In this document: positions 4,714-28,260 of the stretch, one piece after another
Layout of the letters: each line of letters opens with the position of its first letter
Numbering within the stretch: the stretch's first letter is position 1
NCBI RefSeq assembly: GCF_001306055.1
Contig: NZ_LGHJ01000008.1
Span: forward strand, 30,001-62,000
DNA: 32,000 bases
Direction of reading: 5' to 3'
Origin: Bellilinea caldifistulae
Lineage (GTDB): Bacteria; Chloroflexota; Anaerolineae; Anaerolineales; Anaerolineaceae
Notes under the pieces: generated by a model
The model's database searches: none
The model's input: only the letters and a program-made list of their open reading frames with translations
Told to the model about the DNA's origin: nothing
Made by a program: the position numbers and the translations under genes

Positions 4714-4716
4714 TGC

Positions 4717-9047: not shown

Positions 9048-9096
9048 AGACTCCTCCTACGAGATGAAATCAATCATTTCAGCCAACTTCATTCTC

Positions 9097-12000
9097 TCAG
9101 CGCCCCTCCGGCGCCAGCAGGCTATCCAGGTCTTTCTTGGAGAGCACCTGCGCCGCCAGGAGACCCAGGCGCTGCACGGGGGCGATGTTGACCCGCACGC
9201 CGTCGTTGATGTCCGGATCCCAACCCACGGGTTGCTCCTCTGGGCTCTTCCAGGGCACCCAGATGCGCGCCTCGCGCTGGCGCCCCTCTTGCAGCAATCC
9301 CAGCCGACGGTCGAACTCCTCCACGTCGGCGATCTTCTCTTCCAGTTCGGCGGCGCGGTCCAGCGCCCGGCGGTCCAGCGCAGCCTGGTTCTGCGCCTCG
9401 CCGAGCTGGCGGCGCAGTTCTTTCAGGGTCTCGCTCACGTAGCGCGAGCGCAGCAGCTTCAGGCGATCTTTGTCGAACTTGTGATAATAGACGATTGCCT
9501 GAAAAGCGCCCTTGGGGCTGGTCAGGTGCCAGGCGATGGGGCGTTTTTTGAATTGGGAAACATGGCGCTTGAAGAACTCATCTTTGAACCAACGGTCAAG
9601 GGTGATTGGTTTATGTTTTCCCCATCCATCGTGTTTCTTCAATCCCAAAAAAATTCCAATTTCGCGTTCTACAATATGACCGTGTTCAGCCCCAAAAATA
9701 TTGTCTAAATATTGACTAAAACGTTTCGCGAGTACTTCTTCGCCTGTTCCAGGCGTAATTGGTATTATGCCGTCAACATCTATTTGCTCCGAATCTTGGG
9801 TAATCTTACCTCCGGCTTGCTCAACAACTTGTCGAGTAGGCCAATGAAATCCTAACGCTGCAAGCAATTTGGCTGAAAGATAATCCTGGACTAATTCATT
9901 AACTTCTAATGTGCATTTAAAATTCTCAACAATCCACAGTTCTCTTAGAAGCCAATAAACTGAAATTGGATGAATTGACAAGTTGGTAGATAGTTCTTCG
10001 ACAAGTGTTTCAGGTGGTATTGACAACTTAAAATTTGAAAAATTATTAACCACAACATTATTATTTGGATCTGGTGAATTATCTTTAGTTTGGTTAAGAC
10101 TTTCTGCATATTTGGGGACACCTGACAAATAAGCTCTGAGACGGTCCTTTAGATGTTCTAATTCACGATTTGATAGCTGAATACGATTATGGGAACGTAG
10201 TGCCTCATAGATATGATCAGGTAGCGTCTCCATTTCAGGAAGGGCCTCTATAATTGCGTCATACCCCTCAACTAATGGGTACCAAGATACAGGTAAACCG
10301 ATTTGCTCATAAACATGCTCTACGGTTTTTGGTGAGAGCGAATAATAATTGACTATTTTAAGCTCACACCAACCCTCCAATATATGCATCCAGCATTGGC
10401 GGAGATATCTATCGAAGATCTCTTGAATTATGGTCTCGGAAAAAGATCCTGTTGTTTTTAATTGATTATAAACATAGTCTCGGCTTGTAATATTTTCCCC
10501 TTCAAAAAGTACCCGCAAACGTAATATTATTTGAACAACTTTTGAAAGTTCATCATCCCTTAATTCCTCTAATGGAGGAACTGGAAGACTTTCGATATTT
10601 CCACTTGTATATGAATAATTCGGGGATACAAATGATAATAGATAACTTGCTAAGCGCGAATTTAATATTACAAGGATCAACCATCGATATAAAATCGATG
10701 TGTCTAAGTAGCGGCTTGTATCAAGAAAGATGAATCCTTTAGGTAGATACTTTGCATATACACGATAGCTGCTGAGTTTTGAGAATGTTAACCCCTCAAG
10801 CTTATAATAACGTGTGTTTTGAGGTCTTGACTTAAGTTTTCCATTTGCGTTTATGAAATTTCTTAATAAATGTCCATCTTCTCCCCATAAAACAACTAGG
10901 TTTGGAGATGTGTAATAACTGCGTGAATCTCCTCCGCTCATACACGGTACCCACCCCGGAGGCTCTGGATGGAATGATGTTACCTCCCACCATAGCCTTG
11001 TCCATCTTGGATTGTCTCCTGTAGCCAACCCGGATTTTGCAGAAGCGTATTTACCAAGCACTATATCTGAGCCAAGTATTTCCAACAATTCATCCCCTGC
11101 CCAATAACTTAAAGTTGCCCAAGGAAGTTTTACGAACCATCTTTGGCTAGCAATAAAAAATCTATCGCGTGGTCTATTCTTTATTACATCAAGCAACATT
11201 GATTGTTTATCTGTTCTATCATAAACCCTAAGATATTGACCAGAATACTCACTATCCATTTTTCCAGCAATGAAAAGACATATGTTTACAGCTGCGCCAC
11301 TAATCTCTGAGAAGCCTCCCTGACCAATATCGGCGTACATTTTCATCACAGCGTTATTGAAAAAATGCTTTCTTGCTTCGAAGAATGTCTCTGTATACCA
11401 ATATACTCGCTGAACAACCATTGAAATTAGCCCATCTTCAGAAATTAGCGATACGCATCTATCAATGAATGCAGCAAAAAGATCATTCGACGATAAAGGA
11501 TATTTTGTTGTCAAGAAGCCCCTGAGTGTATCCCCAAAGGCGAGACTACCCATATAAGGAGGATTTGTACATACAACATCATAACGTCGTGACAGTAAGC
11601 TCAATAAACCAATACTCTTCCATCCCTCCATACCAAAGATACGGCTTGTTAAATTCGTGCTTTGGTTTTCAACGTTGAAAACTTCCCGCAGGCGTTGGAA
11701 CAAAACCTGCTTGTATCCTTCCCAATCCCTGGCGGACGAGATCAGCGGGGCATCCCGATCCTCTTTCGCCTTCATTTTCCGAATGGCATCCTCGACCTCT
11801 TCTTCCACCCGCACCAGGCTGCCCAGCTCGCGCACGTGCTCCAGCGAATGCCAGATGGCGCGTATCGCCTCCTGGATGGCAGGGTCATCTTGATACTGGG
11901 CAAGCAGGTTTTCATACGCCTCGCCGCGGCTGAGCACGGCGTCGGCGACCACCAGGTTCAGGCGCGGCGGTCCGCCGGACTCATCCCAGCCCAGCTCTTT

Positions 12001-13158
12001 GGCTTTGAGATAGAGCGCCAGCGCCGCCAGTTGCACCGCCCGTAGGTCGATGTCGATGCCGTGCAGGTTGTTTTCGAGGATGACGCGCGCCGTCTGCTCG
12101 GCGGGCACCGACCAGCCGGCGGGCAGGCGACCATCGGCTTCCATCTGGCGTTCCTCTTTATATAACTGCGCTAGCAGGTCGAACGCCACTACTAGAAAAT
12201 GCCCGCTGCCCATCGCCGGGTCGAGCAGCTTCCACTCTTTGAGCGGTTTGGGCAGGCGGGTGTGCGGCGTGGCGGGGGTGACGTAATAGGGCCAGGCTTC
12301 TTTGGCGGGCGAATCGGGGTACATCTCCATCCAATAGGCGCCGATGGAATTCTGCAGCAGGAAGTCCACCATGTAGCGCTCGGTGTAGAGGGCAGTGTAG
12401 GTGGCGATATCCGGTCCGGTGTATTTCTTGGTCTTCTTCAGCTTTTGGGTGAAGGATTCTCCGGCGGTGACTTTCTCCTTCTCCTCGGTCTGGAAGTACT
12501 GATACACCCAGCCCAGCAGCTCGTCGGTGCGGAAGGCGTCCTCGGGCAGCTCGTTCAGCCGGTCAACCACCATCCGCAAGGTGCGGAAGGAAGGCCAGAC
12601 CTGGGCGTAAGGATCCGCCGGGTCAAATAGCACGCCGATCTCTTCGGTGACCGTGGCGCAGGCTTGCAGCAGCCCTTCGCGCCAGAGCAGCTCTTCCGCC
12701 TGGGCGCCGTGGCGGTAGCGGCTCTCGCGGGAGCGCAAGGTCCACAGCCACTTGGAGCGCCCGCCGAACTCCGCCCGGCAGGTCACCGCTTCGGTGCGCT
12801 CGCCTTCGATCACCAGGTGGCCGCGCAGCTCCAGGCATTTCAACCCCACCAGCCGGTTGAGGTGGGTGTAGGCGGCTTCGCGGCGCACGGCTTCCAGGGC
12901 GCCGGCGAAGGAGCCGATCGACTCCTGCTCTTTTGCCAGGATGGCTTCCAGCTCGGCGCGAATTGCCCGTTCCTGATCGGTCAGATAACTAAGCTTCTCC
13001 ACCGGAACCGGGGAGTCTTTGCTCCCATCAAAACCCAGGCGGCGCAGCTCGCGCTCCAGGTCCTCTTCCAGCGTGCGGCGCAGCTCGATGATCAAAGGCT
13101 TCAGCCGCTTCTTGACCTCATCGCTCAATGCAGGGCGTCCGTTGACTGGCTGGCTCAT
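9097..13158 (-). CDS. pglX: BREX N6-adenine DNA methyltransferase PglX
   Basis: 1353 aa. Motif I is LLDPAMGSGHF (about 12.2 kb). Motif IV, NPPY, is encoded at 11554-11565. The conserved C-terminal region contains KKRPIAWHL. The ATGA start overlaps the brxC stop. Confidence 0.93.
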   Translation of the reverse strand: MSQPVNGRPALSDEVKKRLKPLIIELRRTLEEDLERELRRLGFDGSKDSPVPVEKLSYLTDQERAIRAELEAILAKEQESIGSFAGALEAVRREAAYTHLNRLVGLKCLELRGHLVIEGERTEAVTCRAEFGGRSKWLWTLRSRESRYRHGAQAEELLWREGLLQACATVTEEIGVLFDPADPYAQVWPSFRTLRMVVDRLNELPEDAFRTDELLGWVYQYFQTEEKEKVTAGESFTQKLKKTKKYTGPDIATYTALYTERYMVDFLLQNSIGAYWMEMYPDSPAKEAWPYYVTPATPHTRLPKPLKEWKLLDPAMGSGHFLVVAFDLLAQLYKEERQMEADGRLPAGWSVPAEQTARVILENNLHGIDIDLRAVQLAALALYLKAKELGWDESGGPPRLNLVVADAVLSRGEAYENLLAQYQDDPAIQEAIRAIWHSLEHVRELGSLVRVEEEVEDAIRKMKAKEDRDAPLISSARDWEGYKQVLFQRLREVFNVENQSTNLTSRIFGMEGWKSIGLLSLLSRRYDVVCTNPPYMGSLAFGDTLRGFLTTKYPLSSNDLFAAFIDRCVSLISEDGLISMVVQRVYWYTETFFEARKHFFNNAVMKMYADIGQGGFSEISGAAVNICLFIAGKMDSEYSGQYLRVYDRTDKQSMLLDVIKNRPRDRFFIASQRWFVKLPWATLSYWAGDELLEILGSDIVLGKYASAKSGLATGDNPRWTRLWWEVTSFHPEPPGWVPCMSGGDSRSYYTSPNLVVLWGEDGHLLRNFINANGKLKSRPQNTRYYKLEGLTFSKLSSYRVYAKYLPKGFIFLDTSRYLDTSILYRWLILVILNSRLASYLLSFVSPNYSYTSGNIESLPVPPLEELRDDELSKVVQIILRLRVLFEGENITSRDYVYNQLKTTGSFSETIIQEIFDRYLRQCWMHILEGWCELKIVNYYSLSPKTVEHVYEQIGLPVSWYPLVEGYDAIIEALPEMETLPDHIYEALRSHNRIQLSNRELEHLKDRLRAYLSGVPKYAESLNQTKDNSPDPNNNVVVNNFSNFKLSIPPETLVEELSTNLSIHPISVYWLLRELWIVENFKCTLEVNELVQDYLSAKLLAALGFHWPTRQVVEQAGGKITQDSEQIDVDGIIPITPGTGEEVLAKRFSQYLDNIFGAEHGHIVEREIGIFLGLKKHDGWGKHKPITLDRWFKDEFFKRHVSQFKKRPIAWHLTSPKGAFQAIVYYHKFDKDRLKLLRSRYVSETLKELRRQLGEAQNQAALDRRALDRAAELEEKIADVEEFDRRLGLLQEGRQREARIWVPWKSPEEQPVGWDPDINDGVRVNIAPVQRLGLLAAQVLSKKDLDSLLAPEGR
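9550..11680 (-). other. AT-rich block inside pglX (about residues 493-1203), a putative exchanged catalytic-loop/target-recognition segment
   Basis: Hand counts of 60-nt lines give 23% G+C at 10021-10080 and 40% at 11581-11640, against 58% at 11701-11760, 73% at 12661-12720 and 58% at 9481-9540. The reading frame is uninterrupted. Confidence 0.75.
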
Positions 13159-16100
13159 GCTTCCACCACCACCTCATAGCCTTCATCCAGTTTGGCTTGA
13201 ATCTCGGCGCCGATGCTCTGCCAGAAGGCGTCGAATTCATCGCGGCGCACAAAGCGGCGCCCGGTTAATTTCTCCCGCAAGCTCAGGCGGTGCACCTTCT
13301 GCTCGGGCTTCTCACCGCCATCGCCCACTTTCTTTTGGGCTTCCCGTTGCGCCTGCCATTCGCGCTCGCAGCGGTCGAAGATGGCTTTGCGGTAGCCCGG
13401 GATTGCCATGCGCAAAGCCTCCAGCTCGCTCACCTTGCGCTTTTCCGAGGCAGCCAGCAACTTGTCGGCGGTCTTCAGATCATCAATTGCCGGCAGCGCC
13501 AGCAGCGCATTCGCACCGAAGTACTCGTCCAGGATCGCCCGCTGGCGCGAGAGCCCCAGGCGGGTGAATGCTTCTGCCGCCTCGATCTCGGACTTCAAGG
13601 CGGCAATCGCCTGATCGCAACTGGCGTAGGCAGCCTGATAGACCTGGCGATAGCGATCCAGCACCGCCAACGCCGCCTCCTGGAGTTGTTTCCACTTGGT
13701 CATGATGTCTTTTACCCCTACGATGGCATCGAAATCCTCCAGATTTTCGCGCGCCTTCTTTCCCGCCTCGCCCTCGAAGACCGCCGGCGTGCTGCGGGCG
13801 TAATCCAGCGCAGCCACATAGGTCAGATAGGCGCGGTCGCGCCCCTGCTCGACGAAGGTCTCATACGTTTTGAGGAACGCCGCCACACCTTTCCAGCCTT
13901 CTTGATCCTCGATGAAGCGGCGCACACACGCCACCGGGTCGCGCTGCGCCAAGGCTTGGGCGGTGACCGGCTCAACCCGCTGGTAGGTCTCCGGCAGAGG
14001 CAGCTTGAGGTCGCGCACCCGCACGCGGATGGCGTTCGCCTGGGTCGTCATCTTCTGCCCCAGCTCGCGGATGCGCTCCGCCAGACCATGGGCGGTGTCC
14101 GGCAAGCCAACCTCGCCCAAGGCGATCAGCCCGTCTTTGGCTTGCTTCATCTCGTCGGGTTTCAAGCCGCCCACTGTGGGGTAGAAGCGTGTCTTTTTGA
14201 ATTTGGTCGGCTTGGTGAACGCCTCTTCGGCGCGCGGATCGGAGACATCGTAGATGGGTTGGTCAGAATCGGCTGGCTGCAGATGCACCGCGCCGCCGCG
14301 CAGCATGGCTGCCAGGGTCAGGCGCACCAGGGCTTCTGGCCAGCCGAAGGGAATTCGCTCGAAGCTCTCCAGGATCGCCTTGCCGTCCAGGTCGAGCCCT
14401 TCATCTTCGCGGCGCTTCAGCTCATCGAAGATCGCCTCCACCAGCGGGGCGCTGCGCATCAAATGGTCCTGGGCGTCGAACAGATCCAGCGCTGGGTCCA
14501 GCCGCGCCAGGTTTTTCGCCTTCGCATCCAGGTAACGGGCGATGTTCTTCTCGTCAAAGGCTTTGTCAGCGTCTTTGAAGCGCTCATACAGGTTGCCCGC
14601 TACCACGCCGACGAATTCCTGCGCGATGGCTTTCAACTCCTTGGATCCGTCCAATTCCGCCCGATCACCAGAGTAGTAGGCCACGCCTCTGCGCAGGCAA
14701 CTCTCCAGTAATCCGACGATGTGATTTTCCAGTGCCGCGCGCTCCTTTTCCTTTTCCTTCAACACCCGCACGGTCTCGTCGCTGCGGTCGTTGCGCCACT
14801 TGGGCAGTTGGGGCACTTTTTCCAACGCCTCCAGGCGTTTGAGCTTCTCGACCAGCGAGCTTTCGCCGGCTGCCACCCACCAGATCACCTTGCCGCGCAC
14901 ACCTTTGCCCAGGTTTTCGAGCTCGATCTCTTCGACTTTCGGCGCAGAGAGCGGGCTGGAAAGCTCCACCAGGATCTCGCCGCCGGTGTTGATCGGCTCG
15001 CCGTCCAGGCTGAGCGAGAAGGGGATGATCCCGGTTGAACCGAGCTGGATCTTGAAATCGCCGAGCTTCGAACGGGTGAGCACGCGCTCTTTTAGCAGCT
15101 CGGTGGCTTTGCGCTTTGCCACCCCAACGCCGTAGTCGCGAATCTTGTCGATGATATCTTCTTCGACCCCGCGTTCTTTTTCGCTCAGGTAGCGGTATTG
15201 CTCTGTGGCTTCGTCCCTGGCTACCAGACCGGCTTTCTGCAGGCGGTCGAGGGTCGTGCGGACATCATCACGCAGTTTTGCCAGGTCTACGTCTATTTCG
15301 CTTGCCAACAGTCGGGCGATAGTTTCGGGGGTGCGCGGCACCCACTCGACGCGCGAGATCAGCCACAGCGCTTTGAGCACCCGGCTAGGGGGGATCGGCG
15401 TGCCGGGGATCTGCTGGTCGGTCTCCCGGATGAGTTTAATGCCTGTGGTCCCCAGATAATCCGATGAACTGAGTTCATCAGTCACCTGGTCAAAGATCAA
15501 ATCCAGGGGCGCCAAGATCCCCAGGGGATCCTCCGCCAGCCGAATCAAGACTCCCTGGACGACTCCGATCATGCTGCGTTCCGTGCCAGAGAGCTTGAAG
15601 CCGCGCATGGCGTTGAACAGCTCTTGAACCAGGGGGACCATGTAGGGCAGGAAGGGGTAAGAAGCGCGAAAACTTTCCCTGCTCAGGACGGCTAACTCGC
15701 GCTCGATTTGCAGGCGGCTCAAGTCAGCAAGCTGACCTTCCTTGTACAGCTCATCCACAGCGCCCAGGTTCGCCTCGCGTTTGCGCAGCAGGCGTTCTTG
15801 CACCACCCGGCGCACATCCTCGCCGGTCAAGGTGATCTTGGTCGAAAAACGGGCGTCCAATTTGCCCAGGCTGCTCAACTTGAGGCCGGTGCGCTCGACC
15901 ACCTGATCTAAGGCTTCTTGCGAGGTGCAGATAAACCAGATCCGGCCGCGCCCCTGCACGCCGCACTGTTCGACGATGGCACGTAGTTCCTCAATACGGT
16001 CGTTGCTATCGCCAATAAACTGACCCATCTCATCGATGACAAAGATCAAATGCGGTTCGCGCGATTTTACCTTCGGTGCATAGCTTTCCAGATAGGCTGT

Positions 16101-16913
16101 AATCTCCTTGGCGAGAAGCTCCGGGGTGACGCGATTGTGATCGCGTTGATAGGTTGCGATCGTCTCTCTGGCGCTTGCAATGGGTTTATCCATCGCCTTT
16201 GCCAGCGCCTCGGCGATTTCGTCGCCGTAAAATCCGTGCTCGGGGCGGTCCGCCTGCCAGGGGCGCCCAGTCTGTTGGCGATATGCTTCAAGGAAAGCGT
16301 CGTAAAGCCCTTCGCTCTGCAATTTGCGCTCCAAGCGAGCCAACCAGATGGTGGGGGCCAGGTTCTGGCTCTCGTAGAATGTTCGCAAGCAACTCTCGGT
16401 GACCGATTCAGGATTGGCTTGATCCAGCCTGGACTTGATTTCAAACGCCAGAGTCTGACACCAGGCCTTGTTCTTGACCTCGGAAAGCGCAGCCTTCAGA
16501 TCGGAGGATAGGTACAGTGTAGGATCATCCAGATGCACCTGGAAGATATCAATAGCGGTTTTTTGATTTTCTAGGTCAACCACCTCATTAGCCAGCAGGT
16601 TGCCCAAAACCTTTGCCAGGTGGCTCTTGCCGCTGCCAAAAAAACCCGCAATCCAAACCGCCATCCCGTCGCCGCCATCGCCTGTTTTGATGCGTTGCTC
16701 CAGGCTGTAGGTGAAATTATCCAGAAATTTTCGCAATTCGCGTGCCAGCGCGTCGGTGATCACAAATTGCTTCAGATCTTCCAGAAGATTTGCCCGGTCG
16801 TAGACTTTGACAGCCGGCTCGATCCTTCTGGACAAGTCACGAGCGATGACATCGCGGATTTTCATTCTTTCATTGCTCATCTTAGATCCTCGCTGCTCGG
16901 TAGTTGTATCCAT
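13155..16913 (-). CDS. brxC: BREX P-loop ATPase BrxC/PglY
   Basis: 1252 aa with Walker A GFFGSGKSH. The likely true start is the ATG at 16880 (MSNERMKIRD...), 1 nt after the brxB TAA stop, which gives 1241 aa. Confidence 0.93.
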   Translation of the reverse strand: MDTTTEQRGSKMSNERMKIRDVIARDLSRRIEPAVKVYDRANLLEDLKQFVITDALARELRKFLDNFTYSLEQRIKTGDGGDGMAVWIAGFFGSGKSHLAKVLGNLLANEVVDLENQKTAIDIFQVHLDDPTLYLSSDLKAALSEVKNKAWCQTLAFEIKSRLDQANPESVTESCLRTFYESQNLAPTIWLARLERKLQSEGLYDAFLEAYRQQTGRPWQADRPEHGFYGDEIAEALAKAMDKPIASARETIATYQRDHNRVTPELLAKEITAYLESYAPKVKSREPHLIFVIDEMGQFIGDSNDRIEELRAIVEQCGVQGRGRIWFICTSQEALDQVVERTGLKLSSLGKLDARFSTKITLTGEDVRRVVQERLLRKREANLGAVDELYKEGQLADLSRLQIERELAVLSRESFRASYPFLPYMVPLVQELFNAMRGFKLSGTERSMIGVVQGVLIRLAEDPLGILAPLDLIFDQVTDELSSSDYLGTTGIKLIRETDQQIPGTPIPPSRVLKALWLISRVEWVPRTPETIARLLASEIDVDLAKLRDDVRTTLDRLQKAGLVARDEATEQYRYLSEKERGVEEDIIDKIRDYGVGVAKRKATELLKERVLTRSKLGDFKIQLGSTGIIPFSLSLDGEPINTGGEILVELSSPLSAPKVEEIELENLGKGVRGKVIWWVAAGESSLVEKLKRLEALEKVPQLPKWRNDRSDETVRVLKEKEKERAALENHIVGLLESCLRRGVAYYSGDRAELDGSKELKAIAQEFVGVVAGNLYERFKDADKAFDEKNIARYLDAKAKNLARLDPALDLFDAQDHLMRSAPLVEAIFDELKRREDEGLDLDGKAILESFERIPFGWPEALVRLTLAAMLRGGAVHLQPADSDQPIYDVSDPRAEEAFTKPTKFKKTRFYPTVGGLKPDEMKQAKDGLIALGEVGLPDTAHGLAERIRELGQKMTTQANAIRVRVRDLKLPLPETYQRVEPVTAQALAQRDPVACVRRFIEDQEGWKGVAAFLKTYETFVEQGRDRAYLTYVAALDYARSTPAVFEGEAGKKARENLEDFDAIVGVKDIMTKWKQLQEAALAVLDRYRQVYQAAYASCDQAIAALKSEIEAAEAFTRLGLSRQRAILDEYFGANALLALPAIDDLKTADKLLAASEKRKVSELEALRMAIPGYRKAIFDRCEREWQAQREAQKKVGDGGEKPEQKVHRLSLREKLTGRRFVRRDEFDAFWQSIGAEIQAKLDEGYEVVVEA

Positions 16914-17406
16914 CTTTCACCCCCAAAAAATGGAGGGCTGGTCCATTTTCGGTGCCTGGAAAGGGGATCACCAGGGTGTTGGTGATTTTTCCTTCGATGG
17001 CTTCCAGAAGGGCGGAATAACTGATCCAAGGGAATAAGGCTGCGGTATGTTTGCAGAGCAAAATAACATTTGGGTTACCTTTTGCCGCTTGCTGTATCTT
17101 GGCAACCGCTTCCCTCTGCACCAGGCTGGCGAGACTGCGCCGGGCATCGGGCGAGCCTTCTGCATCCAGTTTAAATGCCCTCTCCAATAAATTCCGCTCT
17201 TTCAGAGAGTCGAAAACCAGGGTTCGGAAATCCAATACGGCTATCTGGACCCCTTGCGCCTTCAATTCCTGAATGACTTCTTCGTAACCTGCTCGAAACG
17301 AAAGCTCTTCCTCGGGAGGGTAAATCACCAAAAGCGCGCCCCCTGCGTGGGCGCCGGTCAATAGTTGGGAGCGCAGTAGATTCAATTTATCATTGATCAG
17401 GCTCAT
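16882..17406 (-). CDS. brxB: BREX protein BrxB (DUF1788)
   Basis: 174 aa, of the size and position expected between brxA and brxC. SD GGGGGA lies before the ATG, 7 nt after the brxA stop. Confidence 0.85.
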   Translation of the reverse strand: MSLINDKLNLLRSQLLTGAHAGGALLVIYPPEEELSFRAGYEEVIQELKAQGVQIAVLDFRTLVFDSLKERNLLERAFKLDAEGSPDARRSLASLVQREAVAKIQQAAKGNPNVILLCKHTAALFPWISYSALLEAIEGKITNTLVIPFPGTENGPALHFLGVKDGYNYRAARI

Positions 17407-17413
17407 ATTCCCC

Positions 17414-18175
17414 CTACACCTTAGTCAACTCAAGGTAGATCACTCCACCTTGAGATTCGTAGCGAACATAACCTTGTTGGTCAAGTTCCTCGAGCGCTGC
17501 GATCACATCTCGCAAAGTAAGCCCCATAGCTGCAAACAATCCGTGCTCTGGCGCTTTCACTATCGGTTCGCCCCCTCCCAAAATCAATTGGATAGCAAAC
17601 AGAATGACCTGAGGCGAAATATAGGGTCTGCGGATTTCTTTTTTGGCGGAGCCGCTGGCGTATCCGCAATCGCGAACCGCGCTCAAATAATGCCGCGCAA
17701 TCCGTTTACGGGTGACTGGGTTCCAGGTTTTAATGACCGGATGCGCTTTCTCCATAAATTCCAACTCGCGCTCGATGTCGCTCGTCTCTCCTTCAAATAT
17801 CGGACCGGACAGTTTCGGCGCTAACCATCGCTGGGATAGCTCATAAGTCAGAGCATCATTCCAAAGCAGTAATGTGAACGCCAGCAAGTTGGCTTGATCC
17901 GGATTTGCAACTCTACGGAAAGACGACACAAATAATGTATTCGCCTTGGGAGTGTCCTTGCGGAAGTAGCGCTCAGCCAATTTCCGGTACACTTCTTTGC
18001 GGCTGGAAATACTGGCTCGTCTGAGGATATTATCCTCCAAGATTAGCCGGTGGAGATCTTCACGGGCGTTCTCAGGGTTGATGTAGTCGATCACGCCGCG
18101 CAGCTCCTCCAGCATGGCTCCTTGCCGGCTGAGCAGAGCGGTAATTTTTATGGAGCGAGGTTCCGATGAGTTCAT
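17414..18175 (-). CDS. brxA: BREX protein BrxA (DUF1819)
   Basis: I use the internal start M61 of the 313 aa track ORF (MNSSEPRSIKI...), which gives 253 aa. The ATG at 18175-18173 overlaps the TGA of the upstream HTH gene (ATGA). It is the first core BREX gene. Confidence 0.85.
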   Translation of the reverse strand: MNSSEPRSIKITALLSRQGAMLEELRGVIDYINPENAREDLHRLILEDNILRRASISSRKEVYRKLAERYFRKDTPKANTLFVSSFRRVANPDQANLLAFTLLLWNDALTYELSQRWLAPKLSGPIFEGETSDIERELEFMEKAHPVIKTWNPVTRKRIARHYLSAVRDCGYASGSAKKEIRRPYISPQVILFAIQLILGGGEPIVKAPEHGLFAAMGLTLRDVIAALEELDQQGYVRYESQGGVIYLELTKV

Positions 18176-18396
18176 GAGCGTTTGAGTCCTTCTGCTTGAA
18201 TAACCACATCTGCTTCGTCCAACCTTTGCCCGGCAATCCAGTTGATCAGAGTTGCACGGTGAAAACGCCAGTGCCGACCGACCTTCTGGCAAGGTATTTT
18301 GCCCTCCTGAGCTAGTTTGTATAGAGAGGAACGAGGAATGCGGAGATATTGACAAACTTCGTTGATGGTCATAATTTCAGGGAATTCCGTGGACAT
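18172..18396 (-). CDS. Small excisionase/MerR-type helix-turn-helix protein (HTH_17-like), first gene of the BREX operon
   Basis: 74 aa. MTINEVCQYLRIPRSSLYKLAQEGKIPCQKVGRHWRF matches the excisionase-family DNA-binding domain pattern. It is coupled to brxA through an ATGA overlap. Confidence 0.8.
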   Translation of the reverse strand: MSTEFPEIMTINEVCQYLRIPRSSLYKLAQEGKIPCQKVGRHWRFHRATLINWIAGQRLDEADVVIQAEGLKRS

Positions 18397-22581: not shown

Positions 22582-23816
22582 AGAACCTGCGCCAGTTGCT
22601 GTCGATCCAGACCGATCTGCGCGAGCAGGCTGAAACGCGCTGGCGCAAGGCTCAACGCGTGCTGGTATCGTTGTTGGAAACCTTTGCGCCAGAAGAAGTG
22701 GATCAGCGCCTGAAAAACGGACGCCCGCTCGACCACCTGCCGGTGGATGAGCTGGAGCAGTTGGTGCGCCAGCAGGTGGGCAACCGCCTGCACCAGGTAC
22801 AGCGCTTATTGAACGACAGCCAAACCGCCCAGCGCCTTCAAAACCTGCGCGAGCAATTAGAAAAATTGATAGCCCAAAATGAGGAACTCCAGAAAGAGAA
22901 CAAGCAGTTACAAGACCGGATTAACCGTCTGGACGCTAAGAAGATCGATATGCTAGACCAGCTCGCAGCGCTGCGCGCTGTATCTCAGGAGAAACAACAA
23001 ATTATGGCAGAACAAAAATCGGGCATTTCTGACCAGAATGAAAGCGATCCGCCTGAGCCTGCCTGGATGGCGATCTGGCGGCAGGTAGAGACCTTCGAGC
23101 GCGACGCCAGCGTCCTGAAGATGATTGCCGAGACTGGCCTGGCGCGCCGCCCGGTGATCGAAGCCCAGGCAGCCGAACTGCTCGGCATCAAAAAAGCCGG
23201 CGGCAGCCTCCAGGCTTTGATGACCCGACTGGAGGATCTCCACCTGATCGAGAGATTCCGCCCGTGGACGACGGATGGCGCCGGCACCGGCGGCAAATTT
23301 CCGGACCTGGTGCGCCTGACCGATCAGGGTCGCCTGGCGTACTGGCTGCTGACTAACCAACAGCCGCAGGTGAACGAATATGATCTATTGCTCGAACGCC
23401 ATGTTTCGCCGGAGCACACCCTGCTCAACCTGCAGGCTGCCGATGTGCTGCGCGAGGCTGGTTACCAGGTGGACCTGACCCCGCCGGAGATAACGTTGCC
23501 GGATGGCGGCTTGTTCCGCCCCGACCTGGTGATCGTTGATGACCAGGGAGTGACCCATTTCGTGGAAGTGGAGCGCGACGTGGATAAAAACCTCGAGCAG
23601 CGCCAGGCGAAGTGGCGCAATTTCTACCAGGCCAGCGGGGGGAGGATGTTTGTGGTGTGCGACAACCGGTCGTGTATGAGGAATATCCGCAGCGAGATTA
23701 ATTACTGCCTGGGGAATAGACCGCTTGTTGTTTCACTGACCAATCTGGCGGATTTGCAAACGGGGAAACGAGGAGAGGAAGATGGTATATGGCTAGAAAC
23801 GCGAAATCGGGGGTAG
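22557..23816 (+). CDS. Coiled-coil / winged-helix / PD-(D/E)xK-like protein, replication-relaxation-like
   Basis: 419 aa. It has a long heptad-rich N-terminus (LREQLEKLIAQNEELQKENKQLQDRINRLD), a wHTH-like LLGIKKAGGSLQALMTRLEDLHLIER, and a C-terminal RPDLVIVDD...HFVEVERDVDK nuclease-fold signature. Confidence 0.55.
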   Translation: MAGEEITIENLRQLLSIQTDLREQAETRWRKAQRVLVSLLETFAPEEVDQRLKNGRPLDHLPVDELEQLVRQQVGNRLHQVQRLLNDSQTAQRLQNLREQLEKLIAQNEELQKENKQLQDRINRLDAKKIDMLDQLAALRAVSQEKQQIMAEQKSGISDQNESDPPEPAWMAIWRQVETFERDASVLKMIAETGLARRPVIEAQAAELLGIKKAGGSLQALMTRLEDLHLIERFRPWTTDGAGTGGKFPDLVRLTDQGRLAYWLLTNQQPQVNEYDLLLERHVSPEHTLLNLQAADVLREAGYQVDLTPPEITLPDGGLFRPDLVIVDDQGVTHFVEVERDVDKNLEQRQAKWRNFYQASGGRMFVVCDNRSCMRNIRSEINYCLGNRPLVVSLTNLADLQTGKRGEEDGIWLETRNRG

Positions 23817-23843
23817 TGTTTTATTGTCACAGAACAATGGGTT

Positions 23844-23903
23844 ATCTACCGGTCTGTGGTTCAGCCGCACGCGGAGCGGATCGGCTGGATGCACGGGTTA
23901 GCC
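23844..23903 (-). repeat. attC-like site c (60 bp), terminal and probably degenerate
   Basis: Minus-strand sense: GGCTAAC-CCGTGCATCC-AGCCG(AT)CCGC-TCC-GCG(T)GCGGCT-GAACCACAGACC-GGTAGAT. It starts 6 nt after the TAG of the 272 aa gene and aligns along its length with site b. The R' box has G in place of the first T of GTT. Confidence 0.5.
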
Positions 23904-23909
23904 CGCACC

Positions 23910-24728
23910 CTACTTTTCGGGAATGCGCCGGACAATAGTGCCTTTCAGAATGTCTTCAAATGAGAGTTTGCCTGTGGGTCCAAACTGAAGTACCAAAGCA
24001 AACTCGCGATTGCGGTACGTTTTGTCTAACTCTTGCCAATGGTCAATCAAATACTGGATTGCACCCATTGTTCCAATTACGCCAAGGCCAGCCCCAATAA
24101 TAATTGTGGTATCGTTGCGTGTCTGGTCAATTACCCGTTCAAGTATTGCTATATCGTGTTGATTACTGGCTGGCCGTATAACTTCGCCCTTATCCTTTCC
24201 CTTCATTACTTGGATAGCTGTTCCGTTATGAGATATTTGCAACTGGACAAGGTTATGAATGACACAGTAGTTCGTAACTACATTGTAGCCCTGACTGCCC
24301 GCAGTGATTATTGAACGAGTCGAAAAATTTATTTCACTTTCTTCCATTGGGCTTGCATTGACGCTTACAGTCAAGGGGCGGAAGAAAGCGTATTTCTCCT
24401 GTAGAGATTTTCTGACGACAGGTGGAATGTACTCGAATGCGTCGACCGTCAAGGCTTTTGCAAGTCGCGCACTGATGCTGAGTTCCTCGGTTGGGATAGT
24501 AATTCCTTGATACGAGCGCGGTAGTCCATCAAAGCCGACAGCACAACCACGCGGGATAAGGAGACTGGAAAGATAAACGACTGATTGTCTCGCTTTTTTG
24601 TCAGCTCCGAGAAAGTTGAACAGTTTGCGTTGTCTACTGAGGCTGAAAATAATGAAGCCGACGAAAGCAACGATAAACCCAATAACATATGGAGCGATTG
24701 TAAGGGTTATATCCCCGATAGATGGCAT
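23910..24728 (-). CDS. Single-pass membrane protein with a Gly-rich-loop Rossmann-like (possibly SLOG/LOG-like) domain; cargo of cassette 2
   Basis: 272 aa with an N-terminal TM helix (ITLTIAPYVIGFIVAFVGFIIF). Strand-plus-glycine-loop signatures SIITAGSQGYN and TTIIIGAGLGVIGTMGA are present. The gene is AT-rich. The domain call is pattern-based only. Confidence 0.6.
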   Translation of the reverse strand: MPSIGDITLTIAPYVIGFIVAFVGFIIFSLSRQRKLFNFLGADKKARQSVVYLSSLLIPRGCAVGFDGLPRSYQGITIPTEELSISARLAKALTVDAFEYIPPVVRKSLQEKYAFFRPLTVSVNASPMEESEINFSTRSIITAGSQGYNVVTNYCVIHNLVQLQISHNGTAIQVMKGKDKGEVIRPASNQHDIAILERVIDQTRNDTTIIIGAGLGVIGTMGAIQYLIDHWQELDKTYRNREFALVLQFGPTGKLSFEDILKGTIVRRIPEK

Positions 24729-24768
24729 AAAGACCAGACCTTTCTGAAGACTACGATTGCAGCGAGCA

Positions 24769-24832
24769 GGCTAACGATTTACGCTCGAGCCGCAGCGCTG
24801 AAGTCGCTGTCGGCTCAAAGCGCGGGTTAGCC
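24769..24832 (-). repeat. attC-like site b (64 bp)
   Basis: Minus-strand sense: GGCTAAC-CCGCGCTTT-GAGCCG(A)CAGCG-ACTTCAG-CGCTGCGGCTC-GAGCGTAAATC-GTTAGCC. The outer 7-mers are perfectly complementary and fit RYYYAAC/GTTRRRY except for one position each. The TAA stop of the 302 aa gene (24827-24829) lies inside GGCTAAC. The 5' arm carries one bulged base. Confidence 0.6.
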
Positions 24833-25735
24833 GCTGTGCTCTTTAACTGGAGCCTTATCGTTGGAGCGCTGAGCCTCATAAAGCCAAAAATTCACTGGGA
24901 ACCGCGGGTCATATGTTTTGAACCCACGCGATGATGTCAGCCCTACGCGAAGCCTGTGATTCTTGCAACGCTCATTGAGGTATTTGATAACACAAAATCT
25001 TTCGCGCTCGCTGTTACTAAGGCTAACATTTGTGTTTGAGCCGAATTCAAAGGTTAATTGCCCCTGCTCAGTAGGTAACCAAGACATATATCTTGAGTGT
25101 GTTAAGTACGAATACGCTCCGATACCTGCAAAAAGATCCGCCACTTGGCAAATGGGCTCTTTTGCTGATACGACTTCGCGAATTTGCAAAATCTGAAATT
25201 CATGTAAGAGGCGAATACTAAAGGGTTGTTGACCAAATAGATCGGTGTTTATGCTTATCGTAAGGCCTGCACTATCTAGATAATCCTGAACACTTGCCCA
25301 ATCTAGGGCTGAATTCTGATCAGGGAAAAGATACCACCTGCTTTCAGAAGGCCATCTATGCTGCAATACATTCTTGAAGAGATGGTAGTACATTCTCTCA
25401 ATGTTCGCTATGTCATCTCTGCCGCGGATCTGGTGACGGCTATCTTGCGTATCCCATATCAACACATCTATCCGTAGATGATTGCAGACAGCCAACCTTA
25501 TAGCAACATCAATGATTTTGAAGGCAGCAAAACGCTCGCGTGCTTGTCGAAGTTTAGCCCATTTGAATTCTCTTATTTCTGAACTTTCGATGCATTCGCG
25601 AAATGTTTGTTTGATCTTGTCATGATTTTCAGCCGCAAAGGTAACAACTGCGATACTACGATACCGTTCTTTGGTGTAGTAGGATTCGTCAGCATACGCT
25701 ATGTGTGTGGCAACTATGTCAATGTTCATTATCAT
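24827..25735 (-). CDS. DUF3800-like protein; cargo of cassette 1
   Basis: 302 aa. N-terminal IAYADESYY and C-terminal CQVADLFAGIGAY resemble the DUF3800 DESG...Q-ADl signature as I remember it. The gene is AT-rich and has no obvious SD. Confidence 0.6.
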   Translation of the reverse strand: MIMNIDIVATHIAYADESYYTKERYRSIAVVTFAAENHDKIKQTFRECIESSEIREFKWAKLRQARERFAAFKIIDVAIRLAVCNHLRIDVLIWDTQDSRHQIRGRDDIANIERMYYHLFKNVLQHRWPSESRWYLFPDQNSALDWASVQDYLDSAGLTISINTDLFGQQPFSIRLLHEFQILQIREVVSAKEPICQVADLFAGIGAYSYLTHSRYMSWLPTEQGQLTFEFGSNTNVSLSNSERERFCVIKYLNERCKNHRLRVGLTSSRGFKTYDPRFPVNFWLYEAQRSNDKAPVKEHSG

Positions 25736-25760
25736 AATCTGGTTGGCATCGGTGGAAGGC

Positions 25761-25845
25761 GGCTAACAAATTAATAATTGATGTGGCGGTCAGTGCCAAT
25801 GCCGAAGCCCAAATCAACTTGCCGCCACATCAATCCGAGTTGAGC
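25761..25845 (-). repeat. attC-like site a (85 bp)
   Basis: Minus-strand sense: GCTCAAC-TCGG-ATTGATGTGGCGG-(32 nt)-CCGCCACATCAAT-TATTAATTT-GTTAGCC. GCTCAAC fits RYYYAAC exactly. The 13 bp arms are perfect (25777-25789 and 25822-25834). GTTAGCC lies 31 nt upstream of the 302 aa ORF. Confidence 0.5.
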
Positions 25846-25875
25846 TAAGCCGTTTTATACAACACCTCCAGCTAT

Positions 25876-25904
25876 TAGAGGATTTAAAGCACACTGTCAA
25901 GTCA
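25876..25904 (-). promoter_or_regulatory. Weak candidate promoter reading into the cassette array
   Basis: On the minus strand, TTGACA, a 17 nt spacer, then TAATAG, upstream of site a. The -10 element is poor (3/6). Confidence 0.2.
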
Positions 25905-26066
25905 GCTCCGCGGTCAAACTGGTGATTATGAATGAATTTTAACCAAAAAACCATTCGGCGCAAGCAGGAAACCGGGCAAAAGAGCCGTTTGAAAGAATTT
26001 GGCTTTGATTGAAGTCTCTGAAGCTTGGGAGCAGGACGGATAGGTCATTTTTGTCTGAATCATGGT

Positions 26067-26143
26067 TGGTTCAAACCCCCTGGTATAAACCCGGAACACA
26101 CCTGGTTTAAACCGGGGTAACGGCTTAAGGAGGGTTTGAACCA
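26067..26143. repeat. 12 bp perfect inverted repeat enclosing two direct repeats, in an ORF-free AT-rich spacer
   Basis: TGGTTCAAACCC (26067-26078) and GGGTTTGAACCA (26132-26143). The 53 nt loop holds CCTGGTATAAACCCGG and CCTGGTTTAAACCGGG (13/16 identical) and the palindrome GGTTTAAACC. Confidence 0.6.
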
Positions 26144-26220
26144 GTCTGGTAATTTTAACCGTGTTAAATTGGACAAAAATTATTGAGAATTGGTTGTAGA
26201 ATTGATTTTTAGAGTTATCG

Positions 26221-26694
26221 ATGATCCGCTCGTTGTTTTCCGCCCTTGGAATCTTGATCCGCCTGCTCCTGGCGCTCGTCCTGATCGCCGGATTAGTTCT
26301 CGTCGCCTTCGTGGCGTACCGAGGCTCTCAGCCCATGCAGCTTGCCAGCGCGAACGGGATGACCTACTGGCAGTTCATGCGCGACCGGATCGGCGCCATC
26401 CGTGAGTTGCCGGTAAAATGCCAGCAGATGCACTTCACCAGCTTTGCGATCGCAGTGCCGCTTTACCCGGCTTTGTACACCTACATCGGCATCTACCCGG
26501 AGAGTTATCTCGCCGGGCACACCCAGCCCGATCCGTCGATCCCCAGGGATATCGGCTGGACCGACGCGCCAGATACCTGGTGGCGGCTGGTGGAGGACGT
26601 CTCCTGGGAAGCCTGGGTCACCCAGCACCTGCCCACGGTCATGCCCGAGTGCAACCTGAAACCGCCATCCCTGCCTGGTGTTAGCAAACCTTAA
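26221..26694 (+). CDS. Membrane-anchored hypothetical protein
   Basis: 157 aa with an N-terminal TM helix (LGILIRLLLALVLIAGLVLVAFVAY). The gene is GC-rich. Its TAA stop lies inside the left copy of the IS target duplication. Confidence 0.6.
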   Translation: MIRSLFSALGILIRLLLALVLIAGLVLVAFVAYRGSQPMQLASANGMTYWQFMRDRIGAIRELPVKCQQMHFTSFAIAVPLYPALYTYIGIYPESYLAGHTQPDPSIPRDIGWTDAPDTWWRLVEDVSWEAWVTQHLPTVMPECNLKPPSLPGVSKP

Positions 26695-26707
26695 CCAAAA
26701 CAAGGGT
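26690..26707. repeat. Left target-site duplication of the IS
   Basis: CTTAACCAAAACAAGGGT, identical to 28243-28260. The last 1-2 nt may instead belong to the terminal inverted repeat, so the TSD is 16-18 bp. Confidence 0.8.
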
Positions 26708-28244
26708 GTCATTGTTCAGGGAAAATGACACCCTAAGTGGTAAGGGAAAATGTCACCTTGACCAATGGGTGAGTGTAAGTATAATCTACAGCACCCCAAA
26801 AGAAAGGCGAGAAGATCAGGAGTAATCCGGTCAGCTCGTCTTTTTTCATGGTAGTTTGTCATCCCAATTTATTGCCTTTCAACGATTTGCCATACTGCTT
26901 CCAAGGGTGGTCAGCAGGGGGTTTCCAGGGTTGTCTGGGTTGTTTGGGCAGGGTAGTGGCTTGTGGCATATCAGGTGGTGGTGCGAGGGTAGCTGGGTGA
27001 AATTGACCGACCCGAGGGGGAGCGGAGGTGGCAGGCTGAAAGGTGATTAGGTGCTGTCCCTGGTAGAAAACGGCCAGACTGCCATCCATGGCGTGGTGCA
27101 GCTCGACCCTGGCTTTAGCGTAGCTCTTGCGGTGGGGTCCGGGCGGGATCTGGAGGCGATACTTGTTGAAAGGGATGGTATTATCGTTAGTCACGGTGCG
27201 GGGGTACTTGAAGCAGAAGTAGTCGGCTGGATCACGATCGGGTGGCCAGGGCAGATAAGCCGAGCCCGGTTGAGCTGCTTCGATCTGAAAGCGGGCATTG
27301 AACTTGGGCAGGTAAGCTGCCAGGACCCGGTTGGCACTCTCCAGGTCGTTAGCTCCCGCCTTGCGTAATTCCTTGACCAGCCGATCCTGGAGGGTGCCCC
27401 ACAGGCGTTCGACACGCCCTTTGGCCTGTGGGCTGCGGGCAGCGATCAATTGGATGCCCAATTCGTCCACCAAGCGCCCAAACTGGGTGCGCGGCAGCCC
27501 GCCGTACAGCTCTTGCTCGATGCTTGGCTGGCTAGGGCTCTGAAAGATGGTATGCTGATCGGCGTAGATCGACTGGGGAATCCCTTTGCTTCTGCAAACC
27601 TGCTCCAGCACCAGGAAGTAGCCAGCCGCATCTTCTTCTTCCCGAAAGACTGCCCAGGGCACTTCGTTGTCGGCATCATCGATCATGGCCACCAGGGTTA
27701 ACCACGGACCACGCCCTTCCAACCAATCGTGGCGACTGCCGTCAGTTTGCAGCATCATCCCCGCCTGCGGGTAGCGCTCTCGGCGACTGCGATACTCGGG
27801 AGCTCGCCGCTTCCGGGGGCTGCCTTGCCCAGCTGCCCGTCGGATGCGCCGCAACGTTGAGCGCGATACCACGATCGGCTCGGCCTGTTCAGCCAGCTCT
27901 TCGGTGAAGTGGCAGTCGTTGTAGTCCCGGTAGGTCTCCTTTGCCAACCGGAGGATCTCCTGCCTCATCACCTCTGAGATGCGGTTGGCAGGGCTTCTGC
28001 CACGGTTCCCGTGCTCCAGGGCAGCTATCCCTCGCTGACGATATGCTGCCACTAACCGGCGAAACTGCCGCTTTGAGATGCCAAGCACTTCGGCTGCCTG
28101 TTGGGCTCGTATTTTTCCGGCTTCATAGTCGATCACCATCTTCAATTTGTGCTGTTCTTTCATCGTCAATGTCACCTTGTTTTCCATGGGGTGACATTTT
28201 CCCTGAACAGTCAAGGAGTGTCAATATCGCTGAACAACAACACT
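26706..28244 (-). mobile_element. Insertion sequence of about 1.54 kb, ISNCY/IS1202-group-like
   Basis: The terminal inverted repeats are GTGTCATTGTTCAGGGAAAATGACACCC (left) and GTGTTGTTGTTCAGCGATATTGACACTCC (right, reverse complement), about 22/28 identical. There is a single DDE transposase ORF. The flanking direct repeat is 16-18 bp. Subterminal AGGGAAAATGNCACC motifs lie at 26718-26732, 26743-26757 and 28190-28204 (reverse complement), with a degenerate copy at 28217-28231. Confidence 0.85.
26859..28187 (-). CDS. DDE (rve-type) transposase, ISNCY/IS1202-like
   Basis: The likely start is MENKVTLTMKEQHKL (ATG at 28187); the track start at 28214 is 9 codons upstream. It has an N-terminal HTH (AAEVLGISKRQFRRLVAAYRQRGIAALEHGNRGR). 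The catalytic-core pattern is LQTDGSRHDW ... IDDADN ... IYADQHTIF ... SPQAKGRVER. Confidence 0.88.
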   Translation of the reverse strand: MENKVTLTMKEQHKLKMVIDYEAGKIRAQQAAEVLGISKRQFRRLVAAYRQRGIAALEHGNRGRSPANRISEVMRQEILRLAKETYRDYNDCHFTEELAEQAEPIVVSRSTLRRIRRAAGQGSPRKRRAPEYRSRRERYPQAGMMLQTDGSRHDWLEGRGPWLTLVAMIDDADNEVPWAVFREEEDAAGYFLVLEQVCRSKGIPQSIYADQHTIFQSPSQPSIEQELYGGLPRTQFGRLVDELGIQLIAARSPQAKGRVERLWGTLQDRLVKELRKAGANDLESANRVLAAYLPKFNARFQIEAAQPGSAYLPWPPDRDPADYFCFKYPRTVTNDNTIPFNKYRLQIPPGPHRKSYAKARVELHHAMDGSLAVFYQGQHLITFQPATSAPPRVGQFHPATLAPPPDMPQATTLPKQPRQPWKPPADHPWKQYGKSLKGNKLG

Positions 28245-28260
28245 TAACCAAAACAAGGGT
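28243..28260. repeat. Right target-site duplication of the IS
   Basis: CTTAACCAAAACAAGGGT, identical to 26690-26707. Confidence 0.8.

Follow-up and report, generated by a model that had tools for sequence, protein, structure and literature searches.

At positions 23844-25845 of a 32,000-nucleotide stretch of the Bellilinea caldifistulae chromosome (the whole stretch is called the window here; it lies within contig DF967971.1 of assembly GCA_001050215.2), three palindromic sites and two genes alternate on the minus strand. An original prediction, made from the letters of this DNA, took them for two integron gene cassettes delimited by three attC recombination sites, next to a bacteriophage exclusion (BREX) locus and with no integrase in view. 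An integron cassette consists of one promoterless gene and its own attC, and moves as a circle. The integron integrase IntI is a tyrosine recombinase that binds attC through its folded bottom strand and cuts this strand between the A and the C of a conserved AAC, which corresponds to G|TT on the top strand; the cut strand is then exchanged with an attI site or with another attC. At this locus the recombinogenic 'bottom' strand is the plus strand of the window. Direct reading of the minus strand from 23600 to 26100 placed every feature, the three palindromes included (site a, 25845-25761; site b, 24832-24769; site c, 23903-23844), where the prediction had put it. Gene lengths are given in amino acids (aa).

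25761-25845, minus strand: site a; GCTCAAC, a 13-bp hairpin, a 32-nt loop, an AT-rich spacer (TATTAATTT) and the core GTTAGCC (25767-25761)
24775-25766, minus strand: putative cassette 1, 992 bp; TTAGCC, a 25-nt leader, the 302-aa gene and site b up to its G
24827-25735, minus strand: 302-aa gene; DUF3800 family, predicted RNase H-like fold
24769-24832, minus strand: site b; probable attC from GGCTAAC to GTTAGCC, intact
23850-24774, minus strand: putative cassette 2, 925 bp; TTAGCC, a 40-nt leader, the 272-aa gene and site c
23910-24728, minus strand: 272-aa gene; N-terminal transmembrane helix and alpha/beta domain, no known family
23844-23903, minus strand: site c; probable attC from GGCTAAC to GGTAGAT, decayed

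Cuts at G|TT divide the segment, as predicted, into units of 992 bp (25766-24775) and 925 bp (24774-23850). Each unit starts with TTAGCC, its terminal site opens with GGCTAAC, and the TAA stop codon of the 302-aa open reading frame (24829-24827) falls within the GGCTAAC of site b. The segment 23844-25767 (minus strand) is very probably a pair of tandem integron gene cassettes in the B. caldifistulae chromosome, with no integron integrase nearby.

Architecture of the three sites

Two covariance models were built to search for attC sites. The first (R1) derives from 19 different class 1 attC sites extracted from 8 plasmid integron arrays; the aadA1 attC sequence was confirmed as exact in plasmid R100, and the variable centres were trimmed to give a gapless alignment of 60 columns with the canonical attC structure. 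R1 was run over both strands of the window with filters off, a search space of 64 kb. The second model (R2) was built from 56 environmental attC matches, site b included and site c excluded. Both are our own builds, distinct from the attC_4 model of IntegronFinder, and their E values are rough owing to a short calibration.

The best R1 match in the window is site b (23.8 bits, E=0.0022) and the second-best is site c (14.6 bits, E=0.26), each aligned over the full length of the model (positions 1-60). Both matches lie on the gene strand and begin at or just after a stop codon; the opposite strand of site b reaches only 10.5 bits, and the next match in the window on other sequence scores 10.4 bits. 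R2 gives site c 21.3 bits (E=0.0045), and site b 52.7 bits, but b is among its 56 training rows. Over 52 kb (the window and 10 kb on each side) R2 found nothing beyond b and c. Over a further 97 kb of loci the only R1 matches of at least 14 bits are b and c again (in the extended locus L007) and a site after a DUF3800 homologue (L005/L006). The prediction that all three sites are attC-like, and would be recognised by an attC covariance model, is therefore borne out for b and c, the top two matches of the window, but not for site a, which has no bulged bases and aligns with neither model, even in a 551-nt R1 search.

Within the 56-site alignment, which includes site b, 92.6% of cells are paired, compared with 27-41% in slid controls, in 195 cells both partners of a pair have changed, and covariation is seen at 12 of the 15 inner-helix pairs; these pairing figures are somewhat flattered because the alignment was fitted to the model. 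Folding as DNA, compared with shuffled sequence, singles out site b (-22.4 kcal/mol, z=-3.4, none of 200 shuffles as good), while site a is marginal (z=-2.3) and site c is indistinct on its own (z=-1.3).

Site b begins with an R'' core (GGCTAAC), followed by a 5-nt spacer, a 3-bp L box, a bulged T, the 6-bp stem GAGCCG, a bulged A, a 5-bp stem, a 7-nt loop and the R' core GTTAGCC; the two cores are fully complementary. The fold of its bottom strand has an extrahelical T and AA on the R''/L'' arm with the 6-bp stem between them, and unpaired spacers of 3 and 6 nt. The stem (positions 17-22) and the bulge (23) fall in the register of the aadA1, aadB and catB3 attC sites, and for the aadA1 type the agreement of R'', 5-nt spacer, bulge 16, stem 17-22 and bulged A 23 is position for position. 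Compared with the 60-nt class 1 attC sites of the aadA1/aadA7 type, site b has the same R'' (xxCTAAC), 5-nt spacer, 3-bp L box, bulge, stem (xAGCCG), bulged A, apical stem, CGGCTx, spacer and GTTAGxx, and the sequence AGCCGAC...GCGGCT is common to both. It differs in its first extrahelical base, which is T/TT on the top strand (A/AA on the bottom) rather than C (G), in a 3' spacer of 8 nt rather than 6, in its 7-nt loop, and in its host, a thermophilic member of the Chloroflexota rather than a proteobacterial plasmid. The near position-for-position match of site b to clinical class 1 attC sites underlines the conservation of the attC fold across phyla. Site b appears to have every attC feature and, alone among the three, looks fully competent for recombination.

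Site c is related to site b, as predicted: 19 of 23 positions are identical in the 5' arm and the inner stem AGCCGA...CGGCT is common to both. It keeps the R'' core GGCTAAC and the inner stem CAGCCG/CGGCTG, a 6-bp stem with an internal loop at the position of the extrahelical bases, and its apical stem is weak. Its R' core reads GGTAGAT, with GGT instead of GTT. The prediction had called this a degenerate box; the change is not harmless. Orthologous attC sites of the same cassette in two metagenomic loci, L030 (32.7 bits) and L019 (25.1 bits), end in CGCCTGATGCACACC-GTTACCG and CGCCTGATGCGCACC-GTTAGGC, where site c ends in CGGCTGAACCACAGACC-GGTAGAT. Because these orthologues read GTTACCG and GTTAGGC, site c carries a change in the invariant GTT triplet of strand exchange. 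The stem, by comparison, has changed in a compensatory way, from CAGGCG/CGCCTG in L030 and L019 to CAGCCG/CGGCTG in site c or the reverse. Site c is thus orthologous to the attC of the closest cassettes, which is intact elsewhere, and has a defective core.

Site a has a perfect 13-bp stem (ATTGATGTGGCGG / CCGCCACATCAAT) within an inverted repeat whose 18-nt arms are 89% complementary. Its 3' spacer is 9 nt, and its R'' and R' (GCTCAAC and GTTAGCC) pair through AAC/GTT only. Site a is a real hairpin together with the 5' junction core of cassette 1, and it is not supported as an attC.

The cassette genes and their relatives

The strongest evidence from other genomes concerns the 272-aa gene of cassette 2. 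Its product has no match in Pfam, NCBIfam or PADLOC, and 55 homologues were found, nearly all of them metagenomic. The predicted structure (predicted local distance difference test score, pLDDT, 85) has a helix at residues 4-29, and its best matches in the PDB have template modelling (TM) scores of 0.37 or lower, none meaningful. Scanned with an alignment of the family, metagenomes yielded 18 loci that carry a homologue. An R1 match of 25-39.5 bits lies directly 3' of the homologue in seven of them (L019, L022, L023, L024 and L030-L032), and directly upstream of it in L027; all of these matches are on the gene strand, and L022, L023 and L024 hold co-oriented attC arrays. In at least nine loci, including L004, L030, L025, L027, L022-L024 and L034, similarity to cassette 2 sets in at the GTT of a core of the GTTRRRY type. 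Before this core (GTTAGCC, GTTAACC, GTTAGGC or GTTAGAT) the 5' flanks are unrelated; from GTT onward the cassettes align, and the bases that follow the G are complementary to the R'' of the attC of the same locus. Homology bounded by G|TT, with complementarity to the unit's own R'', is the signature of integron cassettes. Two of the loci also hold pieces of an integrase: L023 has an N-terminal fragment of IntI, divergent from the cassette, and L004 a C-terminal remnant of IntI that scores 58 bits with TIGR02249, above any Xer model.

A frameshifted 272-aa cassette with its attC was also seen in a metagenome-assembled genome (MAG) of the Thermoguttaceae, Planctomycetota (L073, 4269-5159). Its tblastn and attC-model scores equal those of three peat metagenome contigs (L030-L032), which may reflect either spread of the cassette across phyla or a binning error.

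The 302-aa protein of cassette 1 is 100% identical to a B. caldifistulae entry that UniRef names 'DUF3800 domain-containing'. The Pfam model DUF3800 (PF12686) falls below threshold on it, and above threshold on more distant members of the family. The best PDB matches of its AlphaFold model (pLDDT 88) are RNase HII 1eke (E=9.5e-7) and 3puf, the same two structures that were reported as templates for the DUF3800 partner of type VII retrons, in which DUF3800 occurs as a partner protein or domain (PMC7736814). Residues D16, E17, D95, Q197 and D200 are invariant in 31 homologues; D16/E17 and Q197/D200 fit the N-terminal DE motif and the C-terminal QxxD motif described for DUF3800 (PMC7736814). In PADLOC the 302-aa protein weakly matches PDC-M04A (E=6e-7), and sequence searches of the PDB with the 302-aa and 272-aa proteins found nothing. 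The 302-aa protein is predicted to be a nuclease. For either protein a role in defence is plausible, as a conjecture. Both the RNase H-fold DUF3800 gene and the 272-aa membrane protein, a fold orphan that recurs as a cassette in many metagenomes, are reasonable candidates for anti-phage testing.

Cassette evidence for the DUF3800 family appears thinner than for the 272-aa family. In L002 (Chloroflexus) and L005 the start codon of the homologue comes 24-30 nt after a GTTAGCC and its stop is overlapped by GGCTAA(C/A), and the sequence further upstream of GTTAGCC is unrelated. A 23.8-bit attC core lies directly 3' of the homologue in L005, and decayed sites accompany the homologues in L002 and L083. 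In L084 the homologue stands in a run of small co-oriented genes with no attC match at the locus, so not every member of the family is a cassette. In L002 (10001-12990) and L083 (698-3382), on unrelated contigs, the DUF3800 homologue directly precedes an N4/N6 DNA methyltransferase gene; in L002 the next gene encodes a NotI-like endonuclease, and an attC-like site (12.4 bits) comes after it. This arrangement may be a module of DUF3800 with restriction-modification, or simply neighbouring cassettes. The 302-aa and 272-aa genes were also considered as a fixed pair. This was rejected, as the 272-aa homologue of L001 follows an unrelated 300-aa gene and the DUF3800 homologues elsewhere have neighbours other than the 272-aa gene.

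The 5' arm common to b and c (GGCTAACCCGYGCNNNNAGSCGA) was searched for in a collection with one genome per species. It matched 46 stretches; 25 of these loci hold at least one R1 match, and in about 17 the motif starts a full-length attC match. Co-oriented arrays with the motif occur in several MAGs (Chloroflexota, L076 and L080; Anaerolineae, L077; Gemmatimonadota; Vicinamibacterales) and, next to an intI gene, in Chloroflexus sp. MS-G (L046). There are one or two copies in each genome that was returned, and in this the motif is unlike a repetitive extragenic palindromic (REP) element.

Surroundings and origin of the array

The prediction that no integron integrase is in view holds for the window and for 10 kb past each of its ends. 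In the window, tblastn with IntI1 gave nothing significant (best E=8.4, inside pglZ), and no IntI was found within the 10 kb beyond either end (L007, L009). The only recombinase found is a 307-aa Xer-like tyrosine recombinase in the left 10 kb, about 29 kb from the cassettes; it scores 194 bits as XerC, and 89.8 bits with TIGR02249 against a cut-off of 265. Neither intI nor a remnant of it was detected between site a and the neighbouring insertion sequence, or beyond it, by TIGR02249, tblastn or tblastx. A 57-aa open reading frame upstream of site a (...TMIQTKMTY...SIKAK), faintly like the C-terminus of IntI, was dropped after NCBIfam at E<=10, tblastn and tblastx all came back blank.

Two larger features flank the array:

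2641-18355, minus strand: BREX locus; BrxL, PglZ, an inserted GmrSD-like gene, PglX, BrxC, BrxB and BrxA
26706-28243, minus strand: ISNCY-family insertion sequence, 940 bp upstream of site a; transposase scoring 377 bits against NF033594

That the array lies beside BREX, as first described, is true of the region but loose as a description, since about 5.5 kb of unrelated plus-strand genes separate the end of brxA (18355) from site c. Within the BREX locus, pglX (9097-13158, minus strand) has a 2-kb block at 9501-11500 with a GC content of 0.37-0.42, the rest of the gene being at about 0.6. The low-GC block covers the C-terminal half of this methyltransferase of the BREX system; a specificity domain may have been exchanged there. 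A gene of the GmrSD_N/DUF262 type (7266-9047, minus strand) lies between pglX and pglZ in the operon, with PADLOC matches to PDC-M55C and HEC-05. To the left of the window (L009, 12132-22145), past a helicase gene, are DUF2290, a GMT-wHTH protein, DUF5131, a pair of a helix-turn-helix protein and an M78 peptidase, a PIN protein, the Xer-like recombinase, a ribbon-helix-helix protein, ParA and FtsK/SpoIIIE. This run of genes resembles the edge of an integrative element, on which the entire defence region may lie. On the right of the window, the next 10 kb holds Tad-pilus-like genes.

The ISNCY element has imperfect terminal inverted repeats and a flanking 16-17-nt direct repeat, and it inserted right after the stop codon of a 157-aa gene. 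The direct repeat, TTAACCAAAACAAGGG(T) at 26690-26705 and 28244-28259, is unusually long. The idea that the insertion sequence had split an integron was rejected: the element simply inserted itself behind the 157-aa gene, duplicating 16-17 nt, and removing the element in silico restores an ordinary intergenic region with no integrase gene. The ISNCY element is context, outside the cassette array.

Several points weigh against reading the segment as two cassettes. Site c is weak by the class 1 model and its fold is no better than that of shuffled sequence, so that the case for it as another attC depends on orthology and on R2. If the search is scaled to the 3.7-Mb contig, the R1 match to site b would have an E value of about 0.25, and site c would fail a first pass. 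Because site a is not an attC, cassette 1 has no recognisable upstream partner site. By our own estimate some 17 of the 46 motif matches are expected by chance, and the motif scan returned no Bellilinea locus at all, b and c included, the region or the genome being missing or masked in the collection.

Among the alternatives, the one that survives best is that the array is a decayed integron formed in place, which we consider possible though rather unlikely. Site a would then be the leftover attI of an Anaerolineae platform, the cassettes would be the first two positions of its array, and intI would have been deleted or replaced by the divergent 157-aa gene, which starts 455 nt from the junction, at the place expected for intI. 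The 3' end of site a does resemble junctions beside integrase remnants, and it may for this reason be the remnant of an attI-type site. Its junction (ATTATTAATTTGTTAGCC; ATTATTAATTT-GTTAGCC) is similar to that adjoining an N-terminal remnant of IntI in Thermanaerothrix solaris (L043; TCTGTATATTAATAGTTAGCC; TATATTAATA-GTTAGCC) and to one 185 nt after the C-terminal remnant of IntI in L004 (TCTGCCTAATTAATAGTTAGCC; CTAATTAATA-GTTAGCC). In L005 a hairpin followed by CTAATTATT-GTTAGCC stands downstream of a degenerate integrase-like reading frame. Frameshifted or truncated intI genes in L046, L043, L004 and L018 suggest, moreover, that decay of IntI is common in these lineages. On the other side, the likeness of the junctions amounts to about 10 AT-rich bases and the core, of no established significance, the interval 25768-26900 yielded no remnant of intI in the tblastn, tblastx and TIGR02249 searches, the IntI fragment of L004 is co-directional with the cassette and so not in the classical layout, and Chloroflexus (L046) has an attI region of another appearance, with direct repeats (ATAACATAGAGAGTC). 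It is because the junction similarity is short and AT-rich that the attI-remnant reading is ranked no higher.

A bolder form of this idea is more doubtful again: site a could be the attI-type site (hairpin-TATTAAT-GTTAGCC) of an undescribed lineage of Anaerolineae integrons, whose platform lost its integrase in place and left its first cassettes fixed in a defence island. If this were true, and if both genes protect against phage, integron capture would feed single-gene defence modules into a Chloroflexota island near BREX.

Some further observations concern the loci named above. In L043 (1665-3545), from a cultured relative, the IntI remnant is followed by the junction TATTAATAGTTAGCC and a cassette that encodes a 254-aa membrane protein, with a GGCTAACCCG... 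motif in the region of its stop codon; R1 detects no attC there, and the locus looks like another decayed Anaerolineae integron. Synteny between the window and L043 was rejected, as there is a single weak match, a 419-aa protein with 27% identity on the other side of the array. In L004 (2080-2345) an element of about 130 nt precedes the C-terminal remnant of IntI; it has inverted repeats (GTAAGCGTTCAGCCGTCAGC...GCTGACGGCTAATAGCTGAACGCTTAC), is flanked by duplicated ACATCAGG and looks like a miniature inverted-repeat transposable element (MITE) inserted into intI. The IntI fragment of L004, used as a query, retrieved mostly integrase fragments of 40-70 aa and no useful full-length IntI from the Chloroflexota. 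Hundreds of such C-terminal fragments of 40-70 aa (P0176-P0295), some on contigs longer than 100 kb, are present in the protein database, and a frameshifted intI in L018 (1113-1615) still has some of the IntI-specific insertion. Decay of intI appears very common.

It is improbable that these cassettes are an end that was separated from a functional integron but can still be mobilised, being excised and reshuffled by an IntI from another place in the genome or from a mobile element. Site b is intact, an insertion sequence lies 940 bp away, and about half of all clusters of attC sites that lack an integrase (CALINs) share a replicon with an IntI, integrons being split by rearrangements and insertion sequences (PMC4889954). 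Here, however, the insertion sequence split nothing integron-like, and with GGT for GTT in site c and a site a that is not an attC, neither cassette is flanked by two good partner sites. No Bellilinea contig returned a further copy of the b/c motif, in a collection in which this genome may not be searchable.

Least probable by far, and largely refuted, is the view that the palindromes are transcription terminators or repeats of the REP or MITE type: every one of them follows a gene, and site c and the hairpin of site a fold little better than shuffles, but no T run follows any of the three and a terminator scan picks none of them, the stem bulges lie in the canonical attC register, the sites are found by a model whose training set was attC sites from plasmids, in other genomes relatives of the motif number one or two each and stand in co-oriented arrays beside intI rather than scattered, and gene homology begins and ends at G|TT cores. 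Rfam, at gathering thresholds, has no match in the window.

The reading preferred here is thus that of two integron cassettes with no integrase nearby. On this reading the array would be largely immobilised and its cassettes would now be resident genes; at most, site b would remain able to recombine, given an IntI in trans.

Comparison with known integrons and defence cassettes

With two attC sites (b and c) 925 bp apart and no intI in the window or within 10 kb past its ends, the original suggestion of a CALIN, one of two offered beside the distal end of an array, stands. The locus fits the published definition, since two attC sites lie within 4 kb with no intI nearby (PMC4889954). Small arrays are usual for the class, 83% of CALINs having fewer than six attC sites (Cury et al. 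2016, IntegronFinder; PMC4889954). As in other CALINs, the two sites are co-oriented, each follows a single promoterless-looking open reading frame, and the cassettes are unrelated to clinical resistance cassettes. The locus differs in that one of its two sites has a mutated R' core, for which reason a strict caller might report a single attC, and in that its upstream end is a hairpin junction that is not an attC.

Chloroflexota have been reported among the phyla that carry integrons (PMC4889954). The integrons of Chloroflexus sp. MS-G (L046) and of the Anaerolineae MAG (L077) have the same cores as the window array (GTTAGCC/GGCTAAC) and the same 5'-arm motif (GGCTAACCCGYGC....AGSCGA). They keep at least part of intI by the array, divergent from the cassettes, whereas the window has none.

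Anti-phage cassettes have been reported in sedentary chromosomal integrons (bioRxiv 10.1101/2024.07.02.601686). The cassettes of the window are likewise small and carry single genes, one of them encoding a protein of predicted nuclease fold from a family seen in defence contexts, and they lie in a region that also holds BREX and the GmrSD-like gene. In contrast to those arrays there are 2 cassettes here, not more than 10, and they lie 5.5 kb from BREX rather than forming part of it; anti-phage activity was reported for the cassettes there, while the window genes are known from sequence and predicted structure.

The locus leaves the current understanding of integrons unchanged. It offers a clean and checkable case of integron cassettes in a thermophile of the Anaerolineae that is in culture, and illustrates what usually becomes of them: the core decays and the integrase is lost. 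CALIN-type elements, Chloroflexota integrons and defence-type cassettes are all already known, and the locus is a new example of them.

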